Notes under the pieces: model-generated
Database searches by the model: none
What the model was told of the DNA's origin: nothing
What the model saw: only the letters and a program-made list of their open reading frames with translations
Assembly (NCBI GenBank): GCA_050115675.1
Contig: JASFQB010000002.1
Span: 132,376 to 196,375, forward strand
DNA length: 64,000 nucleotides
Source of the DNA: Candidatus Woesebacteria bacterium
GTDB taxonomy: Bacteria; Patescibacteriota; Saccharimonadia; Saccharimonadales; EFPC-124
Direction of reading: 5' to 3'
Shown here: piece by piece, positions 3,970-53,283 of the stretch
Numbering within the stretch: position 1 is the stretch's first letter
Layout of the letters: every line of letters starts with the position of its first letter
Position numbers and translations under genes: made by a program

Positions 3970-5025
3970 ATGCAAACAAAAGATTTAATTATATCAGCGA
4001 TCAAGAAAGTTTCCGTAAAACACTCTCGTTTTCAATTGAGTGACGTTTTGAAGCTACTTCAAAAAGATAGGGTTAGTAGACAATACGCATCTAGAATTCT
4101 TGCTGAGGAGGTTGCGGCTAAACGACTTGTTTCCTCTGGCACCAGGCGTTATACATTCTATGCCTTGCCTGAAAATGTCGATTCACTTAGAGAGAAGCAC
4201 AGCTGGGGGTTTAAAAATAATGATTTACGCGAATATGAATTGTATCAAAATACTATAGTTGCAACTACGCCCTTCCTTCAGTCTTTACCCGACAATGCAG
4301 AGAGCATACTTGGCTACGCTTTCTCTGAGATGTTTAATAATGCTATTGACCATTCCCATTCAGAGAAAATCAGCACAACTTTTTATCACGAAGATGGCAG
4401 TGTAGTTTTTATTGTACGCGATTTTGGAGTTGGAGTTTTTGAAAGTATTAGAGAAAAATACAGGCTTAGTAATTCACTGGAGGCTATTCAGGAATTACTC
4501 AAGGGCAAGACTACAACAGCCCCTAAGATGCACTCGGGTGAAGGTATTTTCTTTACCTCTAAGGTTGCCGACAAGTTCATACTAGATAGTCGCGATATAC
4601 GTTTGATTATCGATAATACTATTGATGATATTTTTGTGGAAGCACGGCCCCATACTTTACAGGGAACCAAAGTGACCTTTTCTGTTAAAGAGCGTACTAG
4701 AAAACATTTAAGCGATATCTTCAAAGAGTATCAATCTGACGAAGAAGCAATGGCATTTGATAAAACTTTAGTACACGTTAGGCTTTATACGCTAGGTACT
4801 GTTTATGTGTCGCGCTCACAGGCAAGGCGTATTCTGTCTGGGTTAGCGGCCAAGTTTAAGCTAGTCGTTTTAGACTTCGATAAAGTGCCAACGATTGGTC
4901 AAGCCTTTGCTGATGAAGTATTTAGGGTTTTTGTAAATTCACATCCTGATGTAAAAATTGAAGCAGTAAATGCCAATCAGGCCGTAGAATTTATGATTAA
5001 TCGTGCGTTAAATACAAAGCGTTGA
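3970..5025 (+). CDS. wHTH - GHKL (HATPase_c) ATPase - STAS-like DUF4325 protein
   Basis: N-box-like EMFNNAIDHS, G1-like RDFGVGV, G2-like GEGIFFTS. The C-terminal FKLVVLDFDKVPTIGQAFADEVFRVF...MINRA matches the DUF4325/STAS-like pattern. The N-terminal ~60 aa fit a helix-turn-helix. Confidence 0.7.
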   Translation: MQTKDLIISAIKKVSVKHSRFQLSDVLKLLQKDRVSRQYASRILAEEVAAKRLVSSGTRRYTFYALPENVDSLREKHSWGFKNNDLREYELYQNTIVATTPFLQSLPDNAESILGYAFSEMFNNAIDHSHSEKISTTFYHEDGSVVFIVRDFGVGVFESIREKYRLSNSLEAIQELLKGKTTTAPKMHSGEGIFFTSKVADKFILDSRDIRLIIDNTIDDIFVEARPHTLQGTKVTFSVKERTRKHLSDIFKEYQSDEEAMAFDKTLVHVRLYTLGTVYVSRSQARRILSGLAAKFKLVVLDFDKVPTIGQAFADEVFRVFVNSHPDVKIEAVNANQAVEFMINRALNTKR

Positions 5026-6831: not shown

Positions 6832-7321
6832 CGAAACACAACTTTTTGAACGCGTACGCGATATTCCATACTATACGAGCGATGCCAGCGCGCAATCCTG
6901 CTTTGATAAATGCATTGCATTAAAGCATAGGCTTGATGCTCATGGTCACATCTGCAACTTAATGATTGGCGATTTTTATTGGTCAGACTTAAAATTACCT
7001 AAAGAAATCATGAGACTTTGTAATAAGGATAAGGAGGGTCATGTATTCTTGCGAGTAAAAGCGCCTACAGGCGGTGGCTGGATGAATCTTGATCCAACTA
7101 TAGACATAGCTCTTGGTGAATATTTTACTGTCGAGCAATGGGATGGCAGATCGAGCACTGGTATTATGATGCCGCTCACAAATATTCGTGTCTATCGACC
7201 GTTTTCGTTTTTGGAACGGACTAAATCGAAGGCCCGACGACTGCTTCACCGAACAGAACCAAACAAAGTTTTTTACAGAGCTTTTGATTCTTGGCTCGAT
7301 GATATGCGACTAGGTAATTAG
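6818..7321 (+). CDS. Transglutaminase-like (Cys-His-Asp) superfamily protein
   Basis: Pattern RDIPYYT...QSCFDKCIALKHRL...GHVFLRV...WMNLDPT fits the transglutaminase-core Cys/His/Asp order. Overlaps the lysS 3' end by 14 nt. Confidence 0.55.
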   Translation: MKAFNETQLFERVRDIPYYTSDASAQSCFDKCIALKHRLDAHGHICNLMIGDFYWSDLKLPKEIMRLCNKDKEGHVFLRVKAPTGGGWMNLDPTIDIALGEYFTVEQWDGRSSTGIMMPLTNIRVYRPFSFLERTKSKARRLLHRTEPNKVFYRAFDSWLDDMRLGN

Positions 7322-8111: not shown

Positions 8112-8711
8112 ATGGGCAAAACTGTCTACGCTTTTATCGATAGCCAAAACCTTAACCTGGGCGTTCGCTCTTTGGGTTGGCGCATTGACTACAAGAAATT
8201 TCGGCTCTATTTAAAAAACAAATATAACGTTGAACGCGCATTTATGTTTATTGGGCTTGTTGGCAATAATCAAAAGCTTTACACGGAATTGTAGGCGGCT
8301 GGTTTTATTTTGATTTTTAAGCCAACTGTTCAGTATTTTGAGAATGGTAAAAAGACGGTAAAAGGTAATGTGGATGCTGAGCTTGTTCTGCATGCCGCTG
8401 CAATTGAATTCGCAAATTACGATAAAGCGATTATTGTTAGTGGTGATGGAGATTTTGCCTGTTTATTGGAGTTTCTTCTAGACAATAAAAAACTCAAAAA
8501 TATCTTGACTCCAAACCATAAATACTCAAAGTTGCTCAAGCCGTTTTCTTCACATATTATTCACATCAGCCAGCTAAAAAATCTATTGAATACAAAAAGA
8601 CCGGCATCGGCGGTCGAAACCTTAGGCCTATCCGGTCATGGTGATATTGTTAGTATAACAGGCGCTCTAATGATTTGTCAAATATTAATAATCATTTCTT
8701 GGCAGGTAAAA
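8112..8711 (+). pseudogene. NYN/LabA-like (PF01936-type) nuclease gene interrupted by in-frame TAG
   Basis: YAFIDSQNLNLG...MFIGLVG...LYTEL*AAGFILIFKP...GNVDAELVLHAA...AIIVSGDGDFACLLEFL is collinear with NYN domains. TAG at 8292-8294 is in frame. No stop separates this gene from the next. Confidence 0.7.
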
Positions 8712-9719
8712 ATGTCAAATCCGATTCATGTAAAATCAATTGCCTACGGCGTATCCGAGTGCGACCCAATTGAGCTAGCACGCTCCGTAGACGACACTAG
8801 GCGGCTCGTTTTTCTGCCTATCATCCATAATAACAAGGAGAAAAATGGCGCCGTTACCGGTACTTTTGTATATCAGCGCAAATTAAAAACCGATAAGTGG
8901 GACAAGGTGCCGTCGGGGGACGAACAGCTTAGTAGGCTTAAAGCTGGCGAAGGATATCGATTGGAGCTAAGCACCGATGCGGTTACTAAATTAGTCTCCA
9001 GTCTTATGGAAATCGAAAGCATTGCTGAACAGGTTCGTAGTGGATCAACTAACACTACATTTGTGCCTACGGCAAATGATCTGGCTCCATTACTTACATA
9101 GTTACTAGAGAGTCTTGGCGATAAAGAGGCTTTGGCAGAAATATCTAGGTTAGGCAAAGAAAACGCTCTTCGCCTAAACGACCTAATCCTGAACGCGCGA
9201 ATCCGCTCTGCCCTTAAATATTGGCAAGAGCACAAGGATGACGCAGACGAAGAAGCTTGGCAACGATTTTTTAGTAATCGGCCCTGGATACTGTCTCTGA
9301 TATCGCCAGAACCTATCGTAATTCTCAAGGATAAAATGTACGTTGGCGGAACAAATGCGTCCGCGAAGGGCGGCAAAACGGTAGATTATGGCTTAATTAA
9401 TAAGCAGACAAATAATACGGCACTCTTAGAAATCAAGACGCCAAAAACGCAGCTTTTAGGAAGCGAATACAGGGGTGTCTTTCCGCTCTCTAATGCCTTG
9501 TCAGGATCAATCCTTCAAGTCTAGACTTACAAATATAATCTAATCAAGAACCTTCCTACGCTCAAAGAAGATTTCGGATTTTTCGAAGCAGCAAATGTTG
9601 CTACTTATGTCCTAGCTGGCAATACAACACAGTTAACGGATGAGACTCAAAAACGCTGCTTTGAACTGGGACGCAAGCCTAGAATTCGTCAAGCGTATCT
9701 TCCTCTTCGTCGTCATTAA
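8712..9719 (+). pseudogene. Shedu-like DUF4263 (SduA-type) nuclease gene, two in-frame TAGs and truncated C-terminus
   Basis: EEAWQRFFSNRPWIL...GKTVDYGLI...ALLEIKTPKTQLL...SGSILQV*TYKYNL...TYVLAGN matches the DUF4263 D...E-x-K...Q core. TAGs at 9099-9101 and 9522-9524. The usual C-terminal TYDeL segment is missing. Confidence 0.65.
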
Positions 9720-10018: not shown

Positions 10019-10852
10019 ATGAATAGCCCAAGGCTTATCTCTACTTATCTGCTTGATGGGTCAATTGAAGGTGTGCGGATTATTGAACTGTCTGAAAGCT
10101 CAATTAAGGCTTTTGTTATCCCGCGTATCAAGCTCAACGACGTTAAAACGCGCGATGAAATAAATTGGCCAGCACTGTATCTGCTCATAAATTCCGGCGA
10201 CAACCAGCTTTACATTGGTGAAAGCGAAAAATTTTATGACCGCGTTAAAAATCACGATCAGTCCAAAGACTTTTGGGACGTAGTAGTTGCTATCGTGTCT
10301 AGTAATAATTCACTAGAGAAAAGTGATGTAAAATACCTTGAAAGCCTCGCGGTTAAAAAAGCCAAAACAACCGCGGCTATGGAAGTGCTAAATAAAACCG
10401 TACCTGTGCGCAATAACATACATGAGTTTAAGATTCACTCGTTGGAAAAAACTTTGGAAGATGTCGCGCTAATTGCCGAGAGTTTAGGTTATAGTATATT
10501 TAGGTCTGAAAATATAACCGCCGCCAGCACTTGGTATGTTAAAGCCAAAAAAACCGACGCCAAGGCCGAGTTTCGTGGTGATAAATTTGTAATTATAGCC
10601 GGCTCTAAAATAGACAAGAGCGTAGCCCTAAGCTTCAAAAAAGGTTGGCCAAAACGCTATCTAGAAAGAGAAGAAATACTTACAAAGGCCAAAGATCACG
10701 GCGACCACGTAGTGCTTTTAGAGAATATACCGTTTAAAAGTCCTAATTTGGCATCAGATTTTGCAACTGGCAGATCTACGAATACCTGGATTACCTGGAA
10801 GAACAAAGACGGAAAGACTATGGATGAAGTTATACGAAAAGGAGAATCATGA
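10019..10852 (+). CDS. GIY-YIG nuclease domain / DUF4357 protein
   Basis: [28 protein letters not shown] (GIY-YIG-like core). The C-terminal [18 protein letters not shown] is typical of DUF4357. ATGA overlap with hsdM. Confidence 0.65.
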
Positions 10853-12411
10853 GCAGTAGCCATAACAATCAGCGGTCAGAATTACATCGCGCCATTTGGC
10901 AGATCGCCAATGACGTGCGTGGCGCAGTTGACGGCTGGGATTTTAAGCAATACGTGCTTGGTGCGCTTTTTTACCGCTTCATTAGCGAAAACTTTGCTGC
11001 TTATATTGAGGCCGACGATGCAAGCATTAATTACGCCAGTATGCCCGACGACGTTATCGCCCCTGAAATCAAAGACGACGCCATCAAGACGAAAGGCTAC
11101 TTCATCTACCCCAGCCAACTGTTTGTTAATGTGGCGAAGAATGCCCACGACAACGAAAGCCTCAATACGGATCTAGCTAAGATATTTTCTAGCATAGAAT
11201 CATCGGCCAACGGCTATCCGTCGGAGCAGGACATTAAGGGCCTGTTCGCAGACTTTGATACTACCAGCAACCGGCTTGGCAATACTGTTGCAGCCAAGAA
11301 CGCTCGGCTAGAGCGAGTGCTTAAGGGTGTAGCGGGTCTTAAGTTTGGCGATTTTCACGGCAGTGAGATTGATCTTTTTGGTGACGCATACGAGTTCTTG
11401 ATCTCAAACTACGCTGCCAATGCGGGTAAGTCCGGAGGCGAGTACTTCACGCCGCAAAACGTGTCCAAGCTTATCGCCCAACTAGCCCTTCATAAACAAG
11501 AGAATGTCAACAAGATTTACGACCCTGCTTGCGGTTCTGGCTCCCTTCTTTTGCAAGCCAAGAAGCAGTTTGACGCCCACATCGTCGAAGAAGGTTTCTT
11601 TGGCCAAGAGCTTAATCACACCACTTACAACCTAGCACGCATGAACATGTTTCTGCACAACATAAACTACGACAAGTTTAATATCCAGCTGGGCGACACA
11701 CTTATTGACCCACACTTTGGTAGCGACAAGCCATTCGACGCCATCGTGTCCAATCCGCCATACTCCGTACATTGGAAAGGCTCCGATAATCCAACACTTA
11801 TCAATGACGATCGCTTTGCGCCTGCTGGTGTTTTAGCACCCAAGTCAAAGGCAGACTTTGCTTTTGTGCTGCACGCTTTAAGCTACCTTTCTGGCAAAGG
11901 TCGCGCGGCGATTGTGTGTTTCCCAGGCATATTCTACCGCGGTGGTGCCGAACAGAAAATTCGGCAATATTTGGTAGACAATAACTATGTTGAGGCGGTC
12001 ATATCGCTGGCGCCTAACCTGTTTTTTGGAACAACCATTGCAGTAAACATCCTGGTACTTGCCAAGAACAAGCTCAATACTAGTACGCTGTTCATTGATG
12101 CTAGCGGCGAAGAGTTTTTCAAAAAAGCTACCAACAACAATGTTATGTTGGATGAACATATCGCCAAGATCGTGGGGATGTTTGATAGTAAAGAAGATGT
12201 TGAATATATAGCAAGGTCCGTAACGTATGAAGATATCGTCCAAAACGATTACAACTTGTCCGTTAGCTCCTATGTCGAAGCCAGAGATAATCGCGAAGTT
12301 GTTAACATTGCCGAGCTGAATGAAGAAATAAAAACCACTGTTGGCAAGATAGACCAGCTCAGGAGCGATATAGATAAAATTGTGGCGGAGATCGAGGGCG
12401 GTAAACAATGA
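10849..12411 (+). CDS. hsdM: Type I restriction-modification system, DNA methyltransferase subunit
   Basis: N-terminal HsdM_N pattern ([10 protein letters not shown]...[13 protein letters not shown]), AdoMet motif [10 protein letters not shown], catalytic VSNPPYS. Confidence 0.9.
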
Positions 12412-13244
12412 AAAGCAAAATCCAACTATTCCAAGACCAGCAAGTACGAACCGCATGGAACGTAGACAAAGAAGAATGGCTTTTGTCTGTAGTTGATGTT
12501 ATAAGAATACTAACCGACCAGCCAGACCACCAATCCGCACGAAACTATTGGAAGGTGCTAAAAAATAGAATACAAAAAGAAAGTGGCCAACCGGTTACAA
12601 AACGTAACCAGTTGAAAATGCGAGCCGAAGATGGCAAAATGCGCCTAACCGATGTGGCGAATCAACAAGAGTTATTGCGCATCATTCAATCAGTACCAAG
12701 TAAAAAAGCAGAGCCGTTCAAGCAATGGCTAGCGCAGGTCGGTGCAGATAGATTGGATGAAATTCAAAATCCAGAACTGGCCATAGATCGCGCCATGATA
12801 TACTATCGCAACTTAGGCTACGACGAGGGCTGGATAAATGCTTGCTTGCAGTCCATACAATTCCGCAAAGAACTTACCGACGAATGGAAACGCACTGGCG
12901 TCAAAGAAGGCCAAGAGTACGCAATGCTTACTAATATTATGGTACAGGGTTGGTCCGGTAAAACAATCAAAGATTATAAGCAGTTCAAGGGGCTCAAAAA
13001 AGAAAACTTACGCGACAATATGACGAGCCTTGAGCTTGCGCTCAATATCTTGGCAGAAACTACGGCAACAGAGCTATCAAAAACTAGTGATCCGCAGGGC
13101 GTCGCTGCCCAAAAAGACATATCTCAACGCAGCGGGAAAATAGCTGGTGATGCGCGTAAGAATATCGAAAGCCAAACTGGACAGAGTGTCATAAGCCCAC
13201 AAAATGCCAAAGATTTACGATTAGGCGAAGGCAATAGAAAATGA
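12408..13244 (+). CDS. Bro-N domain protein (phage antirepressor-like) inserted in the R-M operon
   Basis: [29 protein letters not shown] fits Bro-N. ATGA overlaps at both ends. Flanked by a duplicated hsdM 3' end. Confidence 0.6.
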
Positions 13245-13299: not shown

Positions 13300-14307
13300 A
13301 TGAGCCAAGAAATCCAATTCCTGATATACAGCACGCCACAAGAAGACATTAAAGTTGATGTGGTAATGCGCGATGAAACCATCTGGCTTACGCAAAAAGC
13401 CATGGCGGCATTGTTTGATGTGCAAGTTCCCGCCATTGCCAAGCATCTAAAAAGTATCTTTGAAGACGGAGAGTTGCAGACAGAATCAACTATTTCCAAA
13501 ATGGAAATAGTTCAAAACGAAGGCCAACGTGAGGTCAAAAGATTTATAGAATTTTACAACCTCGATGCCATAATATCCGTTGGCTATCGGGTGAACTCGG
13601 CCAAAGCGACTCAGTTTAGAATTTGGGCAACCAAAACGCTTAAAGAATTTATCCAAAAAGGTTTTGTGCTGGATGACGAACGCTTAAAACAAGGCGAGCA
13701 AGTATTTGGCAAAGATTACTTCCGTGAACTGTTAGACCGCGTTCGCTCCATCCGTGCCAGCGAACGACGCATTTGGCAACAAATTACCGACATCTTTGCC
13801 GAATGCAGTATCAACTACAATCGCAATTCGCCCGTTACAAAAGAGTTTTATGCGATGGTGCAAAACAAGTTTCATTTTGCCATTGCGAGTCAAACAGCTG
13901 CCGAGATCGTTTATGCCAAATCAGATCGGCACAAAGACCATATGGGGCTTGCGACGTGGAAAAACGCACCAGATGGGCGGGTGTTAAAATCTGACGTGAC
14001 AATTGCCAAAAACTATTTGCCCGAAAAAGAGATTAAACGACTCGAACGTGCCGTAACAGGATATTTTGATTACATCGAAGATTTGATCGAACGCGAAAAT
14101 ACATTCACCATGGAACAGTTCGCGCAGAGCGTAAATGAATTCCTGGCTTTTAGAAAATATCAGATTCTAGATGGCAAAGGTACGATTTCTAAGCAACGAG
14201 CTAGCAAAAAAGCCGAGGCCGAATACGACGCATTTAACAAAACCCAAAAAATCATTTCTGACTTTGATAAAACCGTTAAGGCACTTGAGAAAGAAGGTGG
14301 CGTATGA
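13300..14307 (+). CDS. RhuM family protein
   Basis: IVQNEGQREVKRFIEFYNLDAIISVGYRVNSAKATQFRIWATKTLKEFIQKGFVLDDERLK is the characteristic RhuM core. Confidence 0.8.
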   Translation: MSQEIQFLIYSTPQEDIKVDVVMRDETIWLTQKAMAALFDVQVPAIAKHLKSIFEDGELQTESTISKMEIVQNEGQREVKRFIEFYNLDAIISVGYRVNSAKATQFRIWATKTLKEFIQKGFVLDDERLKQGEQVFGKDYFRELLDRVRSIRASERRIWQQITDIFAECSINYNRNSPVTKEFYAMVQNKFHFAIASQTAAEIVYAKSDRHKDHMGLATWKNAPDGRVLKSDVTIAKNYLPEKEIKRLERAVTGYFDYIEDLIERENTFTMEQFAQSVNEFLAFRKYQILDGKGTISKQRASKKAEAEYDAFNKTQKIISDFDKTVKALEKEGGV

Positions 14308-15479
14308 GCCAGCCTGGCTTTTTAGAAAAGTTGCTTGATGATGCCGACGTAGAGCGGCTACCTTTAGGTGATGTAGTCAAACTTCAGAGAGGCAAAAGGC
14401 TTGTGCGAAGTCAACTGGATGAAGTCGGTAAATATGCTGTATACCAAAATAGCATGAAGCCGCTGGGTTATTATCACGAAAGTAATGTTGAGGCCGATAC
14501 AACATTTATTATATGCGCTGGCGCAGCAGGTGAGATTGGCTATAGTGATGTCAATTTTTGGGCAGCGGATGATGTTTACATCTGCTTAACGCCAAATAAT
14601 CTATTGAGTAGGTATTTATACCATTTTTTGTTGGACCAAAAGAGTACTATTCTATCTCAGGTTCGCAAGGCAAGTATTCCGCGTCTATCCAAAACAGCGA
14701 TTGAAAAGCTGCAAATCCCAATCCCATGCCCAGATGATCCGGAAAAATCGTTGGCTATTCAAGCAGAGATTGTACGTGTGCTAGACTTGTTTACAGAGCT
14801 AGAAGCAGAGCTAGAAGCAGAGCTAGAAGCAGAGCTAGAAGCACGTAAAAAGCAATACAACCACTACCGCGATCAACTTCTCACTTTTGGGCCAAGTGTT
14901 GAACGGATCAGCCTAGCTGATGTTGGCAAAATATCTATGTGCAGACGTATATTTAAAAACGAAACTTCACCCGATGATGGGATTCCTTTTTTCACAATTG
15001 GCACATTCGGGAAAAAGGCAGCTTTCTACATATCCAGAGAACGATTTGGGACCTACAAGAGTAAGTACTCATATCCTAAAGTTGGAGATATTCTTTTGTC
15101 TGCTTCAGGAACGATAGGAAGGCGAGTCATATTTGATGGCTCAGATTCATACTTTCAAGATTCAAATATTATCTGGATTGATAATGATGAAAGTAAAGTT
15201 CTAAATAAATTCCTCTTCTACCTTTACGAAATTATCACATGGGAGACTGAGGGCGGAACAATTAAACGGCTTTACAACCGCAATATTAAAAAAATTGAAA
15301 TACCAGTTCCGCACCTCAAAGAACAGGCGCGAATCGTAGGCATTCTTGATAAGTTCGACACACTGGCCAATTCAATTAGTGCGGGTCTACCGAGAGAAAT
15401 TGAACTGCGCCAAAAACAATATCGATATTACCGAGATTTATTATTTAGTTTTTTAACAAAAAAGGAACAAAATGACTGA
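14304..15479 (+). CDS. hsdS: Type I restriction-modification system, specificity subunit
   Basis: Two variable target-recognition regions are separated by the central conserved helix ([13 protein letters not shown]...[15 protein letters not shown]). Distal conserved region [15 protein letters not shown]...[16 protein letters not shown]. Confidence 0.85.
14796..14843 (+). repeat. Perfect 12-bp x4 tandem repeat (gagctagaagca = ELEA) in the hsdS central helix
   Basis: Read directly: four identical in-frame units at 14796-14843. Confidence 0.95.
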
Positions 15480-18400
15480 AGAAACAAACCCCATTGCTGA
15501 ATCTAAACGGTTCGTCATATTAGACAAGTACGTCAAACAATGGGTGCCGGTCGAGAGCTATCAAAGCGAGGCGGATCTAGAGCGCGAGCTCGTTAAGGAC
15601 TTAATGAGCCAAGGCTATGATTTGGCTGCTGAAATAACCTCTCCTGAGGTGATGCTTGGCAATGTGCGTTTGCAGTTGCAGTCGCTGAACGATGTGCAGT
15701 TTACGGATGCGGAGTGGGCTCGCTTTGTAGAAACGTATCTGGATAAGCCAAGCGACACTATTACCGATAAAACCAGAAAGATTCACGACGATCACATTTA
15801 TGATTTTGTGTTTGACGACGGCCGCATACAAAACATACAACTCCTGGACAAGGCAAATATATCACGCAATAAAGTGCAAGTTATAAAGCAGTTTGAGCAA
15901 ACAGGATCACATGCTAATCGCTACGACGTGACCATTCTCGTTAATGGGCTGCCATTGGTGCAGATCGAGCTAAAAAAGCGTGGCGTTGCTATACGCGAGG
16001 CCTTCAACCAGGTACACCGCTACAGCAAGGAAAGCTTCAACAGCGACCAGTCGTTGTACAAATACTTGCAGCTATTCGTCATCTCCAATGGAACTGACAC
16101 TCGCTACTTTGCCAACACTACCAGGCGCGACAAGAACAGTTTTGATTTTACTATGAACTGGGCAACTGTCGACAACAGCCCTATTAAAGATCTCAAAGAT
16201 TTTACCGCCACGTTCTTTCAGCCGCGCACACTCCTAAAAGTATTGCTGCATTACTCGGTATTTGATGCGAGAGACACCCTGCTTATAATGCGCCCTTATC
16301 AGATTGCCGCAACCGAGCGTATCATCTGGAAGGTCAATAGTTCGCATCAGGCAAAAACCTGGAGCAAGCCAGAGAGCGGCGGTTTTGTCTGGCACACAAC
16401 TGGATCTGGCAAAACATTGACCAGCTTTAAGGCGGCACGCATGGCAACCGAACTTGATTGTATAGACAAGGTGTTTTTTGTGGTTGACAGAAAAGATTTG
16501 GACTACCAAACCATGAAAGAATACCAGCGTTTCTCGCCCGACAGTGTGAACGGATCTGACAGTACTGCAGGACTTAAACGTAATCTAGACAAAGACGACA
16601 ACAAGATCATCGTTACCACCATCCAAAAGCTCAATAATCTGATGAAGGGCGAGGCTGACTTGCCCGTATATGACCAACAAGTAGTGTTCATTTTTGATGA
16701 ATGTCACCGTAGCCAGTTTGGTGAGGCGCAGAAGAATCTACGAAAGAAATTTAGGTCATACTACCAGTTTGGTTTTACTGGCACGCCAATAATGCCAGAA
16801 AACGCTTTGGGCGCGGAGACGACTGCTAGTGTGTTTGGTCGAGAGCTACACTCTTATGTGATAACCGATGCAATCCGTGACGAGAAGGTGCTGAAGTTTA
16901 AAGTTGACTACAACGACGTACGCCCTAAATTTAAGAGTGTGGAGTCCGAGCAAGACTTGAAGAAACTCACTGCTGCCGAGAACAAGAAAGCACTCTTACA
17001 CCCTGAAAGGATCCAGGAGATATCGCAGTATATTCTAAGTAATTTCCGCCAAAAAACCCACCGAACATATGGGGCAAACAAGGGGCTCAACGCAATGTTT
17101 GCAGTGAGCAGTGTAGAGGCCGCCAAGCTGTATTATGAGATGCTAAACAAGTTGCAAGCCAACAGCGATAGGACTCTCAAGATCGCCACAATATTCTCAT
17201 TTGCGGCCAATGAAGAGCAGGACGCCATTGGCGACATCCAAGATGAAAGCTTCGACGTGTCTGCGATGAACAGCAGTGCCAAAGAGTTTTTGAACTCCGC
17301 AATCAATGACTACAACGCATACTTCAAGACCAACTTCAGTGTGGATAGCAAAGGATTCCAGAACTATTACCGTGACCTTGCTAAGCGCGTTCAATCTCGG
17401 GATATTGATCTGTTGATTGTAGTGGGCATGTTCCTTACGGGTTTTGATGCACCAACGTTAAACACGCTTTTTGTGGACAAAAATCTGCGGTATCACGGTC
17501 TGATGCAAGCGTTCTCGCGCACCAACCGGATTTATGACGCAACGAAAACATTCGGCAATATTGTCACCTTCAGAGATCTCGAAAAGGCCACGATCGATGC
17601 GATCACTCTGTTCGGCGATAAAAATACCAAGAATGTGGTGCTGGAAAAAAGCTACAAAGAGTACATGGACGGTTACAATGACGTTGTAACTGGTGAAGCG
17701 CGTCGTGGTTTTATTGATGTAGTGGCTGAACTTGAAGACCGGTTCCCCGACCCAGCCAATATTGTGTTGGAGGCCGACAAGAAGGCTTTTGCTAAATTGT
17801 TTGGCGAATACCTGCGCGCAGAGAATATCCTCCAGAACTACGACGAATTTGCCAGCTTAAAAGAGTTACAAGACACGGACATAACCAACGATTTGGCACT
17901 AGAGACCTTCAAAGAAAAACACCACTTGACTGATGAAGATCTTGAGATTATGCAAAAAGTGCACATGCCTTCTGAGCGCAAAGTGCAGGACTATCGGTCA
18001 ACGTACAATGATATCCGCGATTGGTTGCGCGAAAAGAAGAATTCTAATGATCAGAGCGAGTCCGCGATTGATTGGGATGATGTAGAGTTTGAGGTTGACC
18101 TCCTGAAATCACAGGAAATCAATCTGGACTACATACTTGAGCAGGTATTTGAAAAGAACAAGAAGATCAAGGACAAGTCAGCTCTTGTTGATGATGTACG
18201 CCGAATAATCAGGTCTAGCATTGGCAACCGGGCAAAAGAAGGCCTGATAGTTGACTTTATAAATCAGACGGATCTTGACCAAATACCAGATAAGGTTGGT
18301 ATTATTGAATCTTTCTTCAAATACGCACAAGTAGAGCAACAACGGGAGGCTGAAGAGCTGATCGCTGCCGAAAACCTAAACGACGAAGCCGCCAGGCGGT

Positions 18401-18573
18401 ATATAAACACCTCGATTAAGCGCGAGTATGCAAGCGATAACGGCACCGAGCTAAACACCCTTCTGCCCAAGATGAGCCCCCTCAATCCAGAATACCTAAC
18501 GAAAAAACAAAGTGTTTTTCAAAAAATAGCGGCATTTGTCGAGAAGTTTAAGGGGATTGGCGGGAGACTTTAA
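15472..18573 (+). CDS. hsdR: Type I restriction enzyme, R (helicase-endonuclease) subunit
   Basis: N-terminal nuclease region ([20 protein letters not shown] = D...E-x-K), Walker [15 protein letters not shown]-type [15 protein letters not shown], later helicase motifs ([19 protein letters not shown]). Confidence 0.9.
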
Positions 18574-29884: not shown

Positions 29885-30004
29885 ATTTCTTGTTTGCTGC
29901 TAGATTTAACGGGTAGTCTTTTTTGTGCTTGCTATACGACAAAGTGCTGAGCTATAATTTATTAAGTAATTCGCTACTTATCGAAAGTTGGTGTTTACTG
30001 TGTC

Positions 30005-30030
30005 TAAGCCTAAGCCTAAGCCTAAGCCTA
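30005..30030. repeat. Hexanucleotide microsatellite (TAAGCC)x4.3
   Basis: taagcctaagcctaagcctaagccta, read directly. Confidence 0.9.
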
Positions 30031-35727: not shown

Positions 35728-36466
35728 AAGTAATAATGATAATGATAATGATACGGTTGATTTGAGTGACCCGGTTAAAAAAGATATTGCAATGCAGTTG
35801 GTATCGAGTGCAGAAAATTCTTCGCTTGATTGGAAAGCACAATATTCATACATTGAAGACATTGGAGACGGACGTGGTTACACAGCAGGCATCGTTGGGT
35901 TCTGTACTGGATGTGGCGACCTGCTCAAGGTTGTAGAAGTATATGACGGTCTTTCTCCGAATAACGTTCTAAGTAAGTACATTCCTGCTCTTAGAAAAAT
36001 TGGTAGCTGGGACGATACGCATGATGGCCTTGATCCTAACTTTACTAAGGACTGGAAAACTGCTGCGAATGATGAGAAGTTTCGGCAAGCACAGGACATA
36101 GAACGCGATCGAGTATATTTTGATCCCGCTGTCGAGCAGGGTAAAGCTGATGGCTTACGCGCTTTAGGCCAGTTTATATATTATGACGCGCTTGTTATGC
36201 ATGGCCCAGGAGATGACTCGGTCAGCTTCGGCGGTATCCGTGCTACAGCCATGAAAAAAGCGAAAACACCAGCACAAGGTGGCGATGAAGCGACTTATCT
36301 TAATGCCTTTTTAGACGCTCGCGCTGCAGCTATGCGTACCGAGGAAGCCCATAGCGACACTACCCGTGTAGATACCGAACAACGTGTCTTTTTAGATGAC
36401 GGCAACTTCAACTTAGACACACCGCTTAGCTGGAAGGTATACGGTGACAGCTATTCTATTAAGTAA
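35486..36466 (+). CDS. GH46 chitosanase (Streptomyces CsnA-like)
   Basis: VSSAENSSLDWKAQYSYIEDIGDGRGYTAGIVGFC, ERDRVYFDPAV, LRALGQFIYYDALVMHGPG and AHSDTTRVDTEQRVFL are collinear with actinobacterial GH46. TTG start. Confidence 0.85.
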   Translation: MNIIKRFLTYIRHNPLESAAALSVFVALVLGGIVFVASRAASFYAYADASQASVADGAEIVSDSSAIGGKAIQFASASTQPSNNDNDNDTVDLSDPVKKDIAMQLVSSAENSSLDWKAQYSYIEDIGDGRGYTAGIVGFCTGCGDLLKVVEVYDGLSPNNVLSKYIPALRKIGSWDDTHDGLDPNFTKDWKTAANDEKFRQAQDIERDRVYFDPAVEQGKADGLRALGQFIYYDALVMHGPGDDSVSFGGIRATAMKKAKTPAQGGDEATYLNAFLDARAAAMRTEEAHSDTTRVDTEQRVFLDDGNFNLDTPLSWKVYGDSYSIK

Positions 36467-53144: not shown

Positions 53145-53283
53145 GTTCGCTCCTTTAATCTGAGGGTGTGATGCTATAGTTGCACATTTTAAACTTTGCG
53201 TCAAAGCGGCTGTTATTTTTAAATCAATTATAGTAAATTAATAAGCATAAGCATAAGCATATCAAAAAAAATGGGGGCTAGCT

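Follow-up and report, generated by a model that had tools for sequence, protein, structure and literature searches.

A perfect tandem array of four 12-nt units at positions 14796-14843 of the window (the whole 64,000-nt stretch of DNA analysed here) is probably the segment that sets the length of the central helix in a type IC HsdS specificity subunit, and as such would fix the spacer of its recognition site (probability ∼0.78). The array lies within the central conserved region of an EcoR124-family protein, and the same unit is gained or lost between near-identical alleles in other genomes. By analogy with published relatives, the number of units would determine the length of the spacer.

On the plus strand, positions 14796-14843 read directly as gagctagaagca four times with no mismatch, followed by cgtaaaaagcaatac (cgtaaaaag). 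The unit, GAGCTAGAAGCA (12 nt), encodes ELEA, and its four identical copies are in frame with an ORF at 14304-15479 (+), so that (ELEA)4 makes up residues 165-180 of the product. Tandem Repeats Finder returned 14794-14843 (period 12, 4.2 copies, 100% matches, score 100) as the top-scoring tandem array in the 64-kb window. Direct reading and Tandem Repeats Finder thus agree with the perfect 12-bp repeat of four ELEA units announced in the preliminary description. The bases CA just 5′ of the array also match the unit, which brings the self-matching stretch to 50 nt. At lags of 4 to 30, the longest self-match run in the window was 38 nt (lag 12, position 14794); 30 shuffles of the window gave runs of 10 on average and of 14 at most. 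The perfection of the array is far above chance expectation. Synonymous sites are identical in 4/4 units, and stop codons are present in two of the five alternative reading frames across the array. When both strands were searched, the 12-nt unit was found nowhere else in the window. Three short perfect hexanucleotide tandem repeats also occur in the window: CTAAGC × 4.5 (30004-30030), ATAATG × 3.5 (35733-35753) and ATAAGC × 3.5 (53241-53261).

The ORF that carries the array encodes a 391-aa protein with two target-recognition domains (TRDs). Pfam Methylase_S matched the protein in two stretches (E = 2.3e-50; best stretch, residues 200-367), and its best solved relative in a phmmer search was EcoR124 HsdS (7bst; E = 1.9e-54, residues 1-384). 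The assignment of the ORF to hsdS in the preliminary description therefore holds. Over residues 1-384 both conserved regions are near-identical to those of EcoR124, and the recognition domains show low identity. TRD1 (residues ∼16-141; 14349..14726, +) is poorly conserved in this alignment, as expected because specificity differs; TRD2 covers residues ∼201-334 (14904..15305, +), as judged from model elements and the Pfam stretch 200-367. In an AlphaFold2 model of HsdS, built on 52 sequences (mean pLDDT 87.7), two globular domains were observed (pLDDT mostly >90 in the elements of TRD1), and residues 165-180 were located within a single uninterrupted helix at residues 146-193 (14739..14882, +; block pLDDT 81-90), in which the flanks of the repeat are nearly identical to those of EcoR124. 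The C-terminal conserved helix (residues 338-382; 15315..15449, +) was modelled as its partner. Helix 146-193 is predicted by the model to be one arm of an antiparallel coiled coil that spaces the two recognition domains, with the C-terminal helix as the other arm. The EcoR124 alignment and the modelled helix both place the repeat within the central conserved coiled coil between the two recognition domains, where it had been located at the outset.

In the alignment the array stands opposite the TAEL repeat of EcoR124 (LDLFT-(ELEA)4-RKKQY vs. LDKFT-ALTAELTAELNM-RKKQY), with the 16 residues of (ELEA)4 facing the 12 residues of ALTAELTAELNM across a 4-residue gap. The flank 3′ of the repeat is RKKQYNYYRDQLLSF in EcoR124 HsdS, and that of the window is almost identical. 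The PDB chain of EcoR124 contains two TAEL units, although it was deposited under the EcoR124II name. By its length, the 16-residue (ELEA)4 linker corresponds to the three-TAEL (EcoR124II/EcoDXXI) state and does not exceed it. The C-terminal linker of the window protein has no repeat and is also 16 aa long, and thus equals the central linker in length. The length of the C-terminal linker was the same in 101/101 full-length HsdS relatives (51 + 50), the central linker of which measured 12 or 16 residues.

The hsdS gene belongs to an operon-like row of plus-strand genes, most junctions of which overlap. The row comprises a GIY-YIG/DUF4357 gene (10019-10852), hsdM (N6-adenine methyltransferase subunit, 520 aa; 10849..12411), a Bro-N domain gene (12408-13244), a RhuM-family gene (13300-14307), hsdS (14304..15479) and hsdR (motor and nuclease subunit, 1033 aa; 15472..18573). 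The start of hsdR and the end of hsdS overlap by 8 nt. HsdM matched Pfam N6_Mtase (E = 2.9e-116) and HsdM_N; its similarity to the EcoR124 M protein (7bst_D; E = 2e-272, residues 6-517) was followed by that to another type I methyltransferase subunit (3lkd; E = 1e-95). HsdR contains HSDR_N, SWI2_SNF2, T1R_D3-like and EcoR124_C domains (E = 1.8e-69 for the last), and EcoR124I HsdR (2w00) matched it with 1748 bits over residues 1-1033. Because HsdR, HsdM and HsdS all match EcoR124, the operon is, by its sequence features, predicted to encode an intact type IC (EcoR124-family) restriction-modification system that closely resembles the archetype. Overlaps of the Bro-N gene with the end of hsdM, and of the RhuM-family gene with the start of hsdS, suggest co-transcription; both genes are outside the ruler mechanism. 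The last 4 nt of the GIY-YIG/DUF4357 gene overlap the start of hsdM, an arrangement that looks like co-translation with the restriction-modification operon. A tblastn search with HsdS revealed no second hsdS copy in the window, and no recombinase for hsdS inversion was found there. The presence of a single hsdS in the window excludes inversion-type switching.

Upstream of the operon, two adjacent plus-strand ORFs (8310-9101 and 9132-9524) bear NYN/SduA_N and SduA_C marks; these Pfam marks were read from the counterparts of the two ORFs on a JGI contig whose HsdM and HsdR are identical to those of the window. The pair resembles a Shedu-like defence gene divided between two reading frames and, together with the restriction-modification operon, suggests a defence island. 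The window (G+C content 43%) also encodes LigD, glutamate decarboxylase and a CHASE histidine kinase. Its proteins are recorded under 'Candidatus Woesebacteria bacterium', a metagenome-assembled genome, and its HsdR is ∼79% identical to the plasmid-borne HsdR of several Proteobacteria. The combination of this proteobacterial-like HsdR, the EcoR124I-like HsdM and HsdR, and the Woesebacteria label points to either recent horizontal transfer or a contig that was mis-binned or mis-named.

The original work on the TAEL repeats of EcoR124I/II is reportedly that of Price et al. from 1987 and 1989. How far apart the recognition domains of a type IC enzyme stand is determined by its two connecting helices (PMC3874165). 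EcoR124I, with two TAEL units, reads GAAN6RTCG, and EcoR124II, with three, reads GAAN7RTCG (Loenen et al. 2014, PMC3874165); the statement in the preliminary description that the number of 4-aa repeats in this pair changes the spacer by 1 bp is accordingly correct (two vs. three TAEL, N6 vs. N7). The change between the two occurs via unequal crossing-over at the 12-bp repeat, hybrids behave as predicted, and three TAEL units are described in the review as the apparent optimum (PMC3874165). A similar relation holds for NgoAV, in which one LEAT unit gives GACN6TGC and two give GACN7TGC (PMC6789123). In a set of 3,761 gonococcal isolates, closely related members differ in their number of LEAT units, and the repeat has been termed a molecular ruler (bioRxiv 10.64898/2026.01.10.698759).

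The window array shares with that of EcoR124I/II the protein family, the spot in the first connecting helix, the size of the unit (12 nt, 4 residues), near-identical flanks (RKKQYN-YRDQLL downstream) and a C-terminal linker of 16 aa. It differs in its unit, four perfect copies of ELEA (GAGCTAGAAGCA) vs. two or three of TAEL. Both recognition domains of the window protein are distinct from those of EcoR124. Gene order also differs, since hsdM is directly followed by hsdS in EcoR124 and two genes lie between them in the window; and the window locus is chromosomal, in an uncultured bacterium, whereas EcoR124 is on an IncFIV plasmid. With NgoAV (Neisseria gonorrhoeae type IC, 0-3 LEAT units), the array has in common a four-residue, Leu/Glu/Ala-rich repeat in the central helix. 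In NgoAV the unit number sets N6 vs. N7 and varies between close strains without a frameshift, but there a poly-G tract truncates HsdS to a dimerising half-protein. The window system resembles phase-variable type I systems in that variability is built into the specificity gene (Atack et al., PMC7383803, PMC7394358). Its unit, however, is a multiple of three, so that expression would not be switched on and off, and neither a second hsdS nor a recombinase for inversion is present in the window.

From these precedents, the following mechanism is proposed for the window enzyme. The central helix would pair antiparallel with the C-terminal helix, and its length would set the distance and twist between the recognition domains and, through them, the number of unspecified bp in the bipartite site. 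With four ELEA units, the 16-residue linker would yield a half-site-N(x)-half-site arrangement whose spacer is the longer of the two common ones, probably N7 if the enzyme behaves like its relatives. Units that are identical in DNA would permit unequal crossing-over or replication slippage to lengthen or shorten the array by 12 nt while the reading frame is kept. A protein with three or five units would then recognise a site with a spacer 1 bp shorter or longer, and the change would affect methyltransferase and endonuclease alike. Classical contingency loci have longer arrays than these four 12-nt units, and switching may accordingly be infrequent; the symmetric 16/16 linker state may also be favoured.

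Variation of the linker in steps of four residues was observed in the relatives of the window protein. In the best 120 homologues, the linker between LDxFT and RKKQY was 8, 12 or 16 residues long, always a multiple of 4, and was built from units of the TAEL, TSEL, TVEL or LEAE type. Against a single 170-nt stretch of the query, E. coli type IC hsdS genes aligned with either 170 or 158 nt. When one genome per species was scanned for the exact 12-nt unit GAGCTAGAAGCA in at least two tandem copies, 90 loci were recovered. All but one or two of them lie in the central region of an hsdS gene, and the hsdS genes with this unit represent ∼88 species of many phyla. Saccharibacteria or other Patescibacteria account by name for 45 of the 80 listed loci; the remaining listed loci include Gammaproteobacteria, Campylobacterota, Actinomycetota, Bacteroidota and Bacillota. 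The arrays at the genome-scan loci contain two (36 loci), three (37), four (16) or five (1) perfect copies. If all ELEA-like units are counted and the window's own allele is left out, three units are present in 53 alleles, four in 30 and five in one. The central linker measures 12, 16 or 20 aa across 85 ELEA alleles. On a Pseudomonadales contig (L057), two ELEA arrays (4538-4585 and 4735-4758) lie 150 nt apart with a run of N between them, a configuration explained either by a gap in the assembly of hsdS or by fragments of hsdS in tandem.

The gain or loss of a unit can be followed in three Saccharibacteria genomes, two of which carry three units (L015 and L045) and one four (L018). Over the first 1058 aligned nt, the hsdS genes of L018 and L015 differ by one 12-nt unit and one substitution only. 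At the level of sequence, L015 and L018 represent a putative natural pair of the EcoR124I/II kind. The same 12-nt unit is thus gained or lost between near-identical alleles, in agreement with the potential switch, and no more than that, which had been claimed for the window array. As a separate observation, TRD2 of L015 is 75% identical to the GAA-reading TRD1 of EcoR124I, that is, to a domain at the opposite position in a different phylum.

Longer arrays were recovered from metagenomes. At a threshold of at least five perfect units, the scan yielded three hsdS alleles: L096 (minus strand), a full-length hsdS with six units; L095 (6532-6591), which encodes a half-size HsdS (212 aa) with six units and is reminiscent of the truncated, dimerising HsdS200 of NgoAV; and L093 (3897-4004), an hsdS with ten units, the C-terminus of which may be disturbed. 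Two further contigs (L094 and L097) have nine perfect units at their ends with no hsdS context and were excluded from the counts. Viral contigs gave two matches only, one an ordinary 4-unit hsdS and the other an unrelated ELEA-rich short ORF. The latter (L099, 5127-5150) is a 47-aa ORF that is nearly all ELEA-like and uses the same 12-nt unit but is not an hsdS.

For the lineage of the window itself, exact copies of HsdM and HsdR were found on the 142-kb JGI contig and on two Logan contigs of run SRR11713588. The hsdS product of the JGI contig is also 391 aa long, as in the window, and this contig probably represents the window's own assembly or a sister of it. The two Logan contigs end and begin inside the array (L001 end, 7227-7254; L002 start, 1-30). 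With k = 31 assumed for Logan assembly, L001 terminates at the last 31-mer that still holds a distinguishing flank base. Because a node at k = 31 becomes ambiguous at this break only with at least three units plus 5 nt, the SRR11713588 allele has at least four units; every 31-mer of a 3-unit variant is already found in a 4-unit allele, so these contigs can neither show nor exclude mixed copy number. No HsdS more than 69% identical to that of the window was present in a collection of 5.8 billion protein clusters, and the exact window HsdS is not on record, whereas ten other proteins of the window, HsdM and HsdR among them, are. A scan of metagenome contigs for the window-specific junction (GACTTGTTTACA followed by the first unit) gave 0 matches. 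A copy-number variant of the window allele was not found in a comparison of the window with the JGI contig, the two being possibly one assembly. Public short-read contigs also end inside this 12-nt array at other loci, including L004, L010, L019, L026, L046, L058 and L078. Since contigs often break there, hsdS genes with at least four units are likely to be under-represented or split in assemblies.

A copy number that merely reflects short-read assemblers collapsing or expanding a tandem repeat would account for the many contigs that end inside the array (L001, L002 and those named above among them). It is very improbable, however, because the array (48-50 nt) is below ordinary read length, the ORF is in frame and full length with a linker of 16 aa, a common natural state, and the Logan contigs independently need at least four units. 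A more serious objection to a variable ruler is that (ELEA)4 may merely build a 16-residue linker, its DNA identity being the product of one recent duplication and its rate of change not meaningful. The match between the central and C-terminal linkers (both 16 aa) is consistent with such a fixed element, as are the description of three TAEL units, which give the same linker length, as an apparent optimum (PMC3874165), the finding of four, or at least four, units only in the two samples that carry the locus, and the four units of 30/84 ELEA alleles of other species. The identity of all synonymous sites in the four units argues instead for recent or ongoing homogenisation. Moreover, the otherwise identical alleles L015 and L018 differ by one unit, metagenome arrays reach 6 to 10 units, and LEAT arrays of only two units already vary between close gonococci (bioRxiv 10.64898/2026.01.10.698759). 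On balance we consider a fixed linker doubtful.

The repeat and its flanks could also act chiefly as a homologous crossover site for the swapping of recognition domains, with length change as a by-product. Reassortment appears to have left traces at this place: 33 allele pairs of unequal linker length share at least one recognition domain at >85% identity, and in most of those pairs where it can be compared the other domain is unrelated. In the pairs L015/L082 and L022/L025, DNA identity on the side of the shared domain reaches the array and decays within ∼20-40 nt beyond it. The presence of the EcoR124I TRD1-like domain (75%) at the TRD2 position of a Saccharibacteria allele, and the combination of EcoR124-like flanks with ELEA units in the window HsdS, point in the same direction. 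Nevertheless, domain reassortment requires a conserved region only, not a tandem repeat; it leaves the four-residue steps in linker length unexplained, and L015 and L018 keep both domains and yet differ by one unit. That crossover is the chief function of the array is therefore rather improbable. The idea is compatible with a ruler, and a role in crossover complements the length-setting role of the array and does not replace it.

The ruler principle has been known since 1989 and was lately extended to Neisseria, and the window array adds breadth to it, with no new mechanism. A literature search found no paper joining 'ELEA' with hsdS; what is new in the window array is a different repeat peptide (ELEA) within a well-known ruler class. 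Across many phyla, type I specificity genes are marked by the identical 12-nt ELEA unit, with three or four units dominant and five to ten rare, and a clean natural 3/4-unit pair is present in oral Saccharibacteria. Repeats with a unit length divisible by three were explicitly set aside in a large survey of type I genes (Atack et al., PMC7383803), a gap that, as the present data suggest, seems easy to fill.

A bolder proposal is that the GAGCTAGAAGCA/ELEA cassette is a horizontally spread, hypervariable ruler module, common to the hsdS genes of many phyla in its nucleotide sequence and most frequent in Patescibacteria/CPR, that toggles between three and four units at appreciable rates and at times expands to 6-10. 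We regard it as speculative and, at present, unlikely. If it were true, episymbionts with small genomes, such as this putative Woesebacterium, would vary defence specificity and genome-wide methylation without a frameshift, and long arrays might give spacers or assemblies beyond the known N6-N8. If the length of the window array changes in this lineage, slippage by one 12-nt unit would be enough to give an otherwise conserved type I system a new target for methylation and restriction alike. Barriers to phages and plasmids in this uncultured bacterium would change with it, as might an epigenetic regulon.
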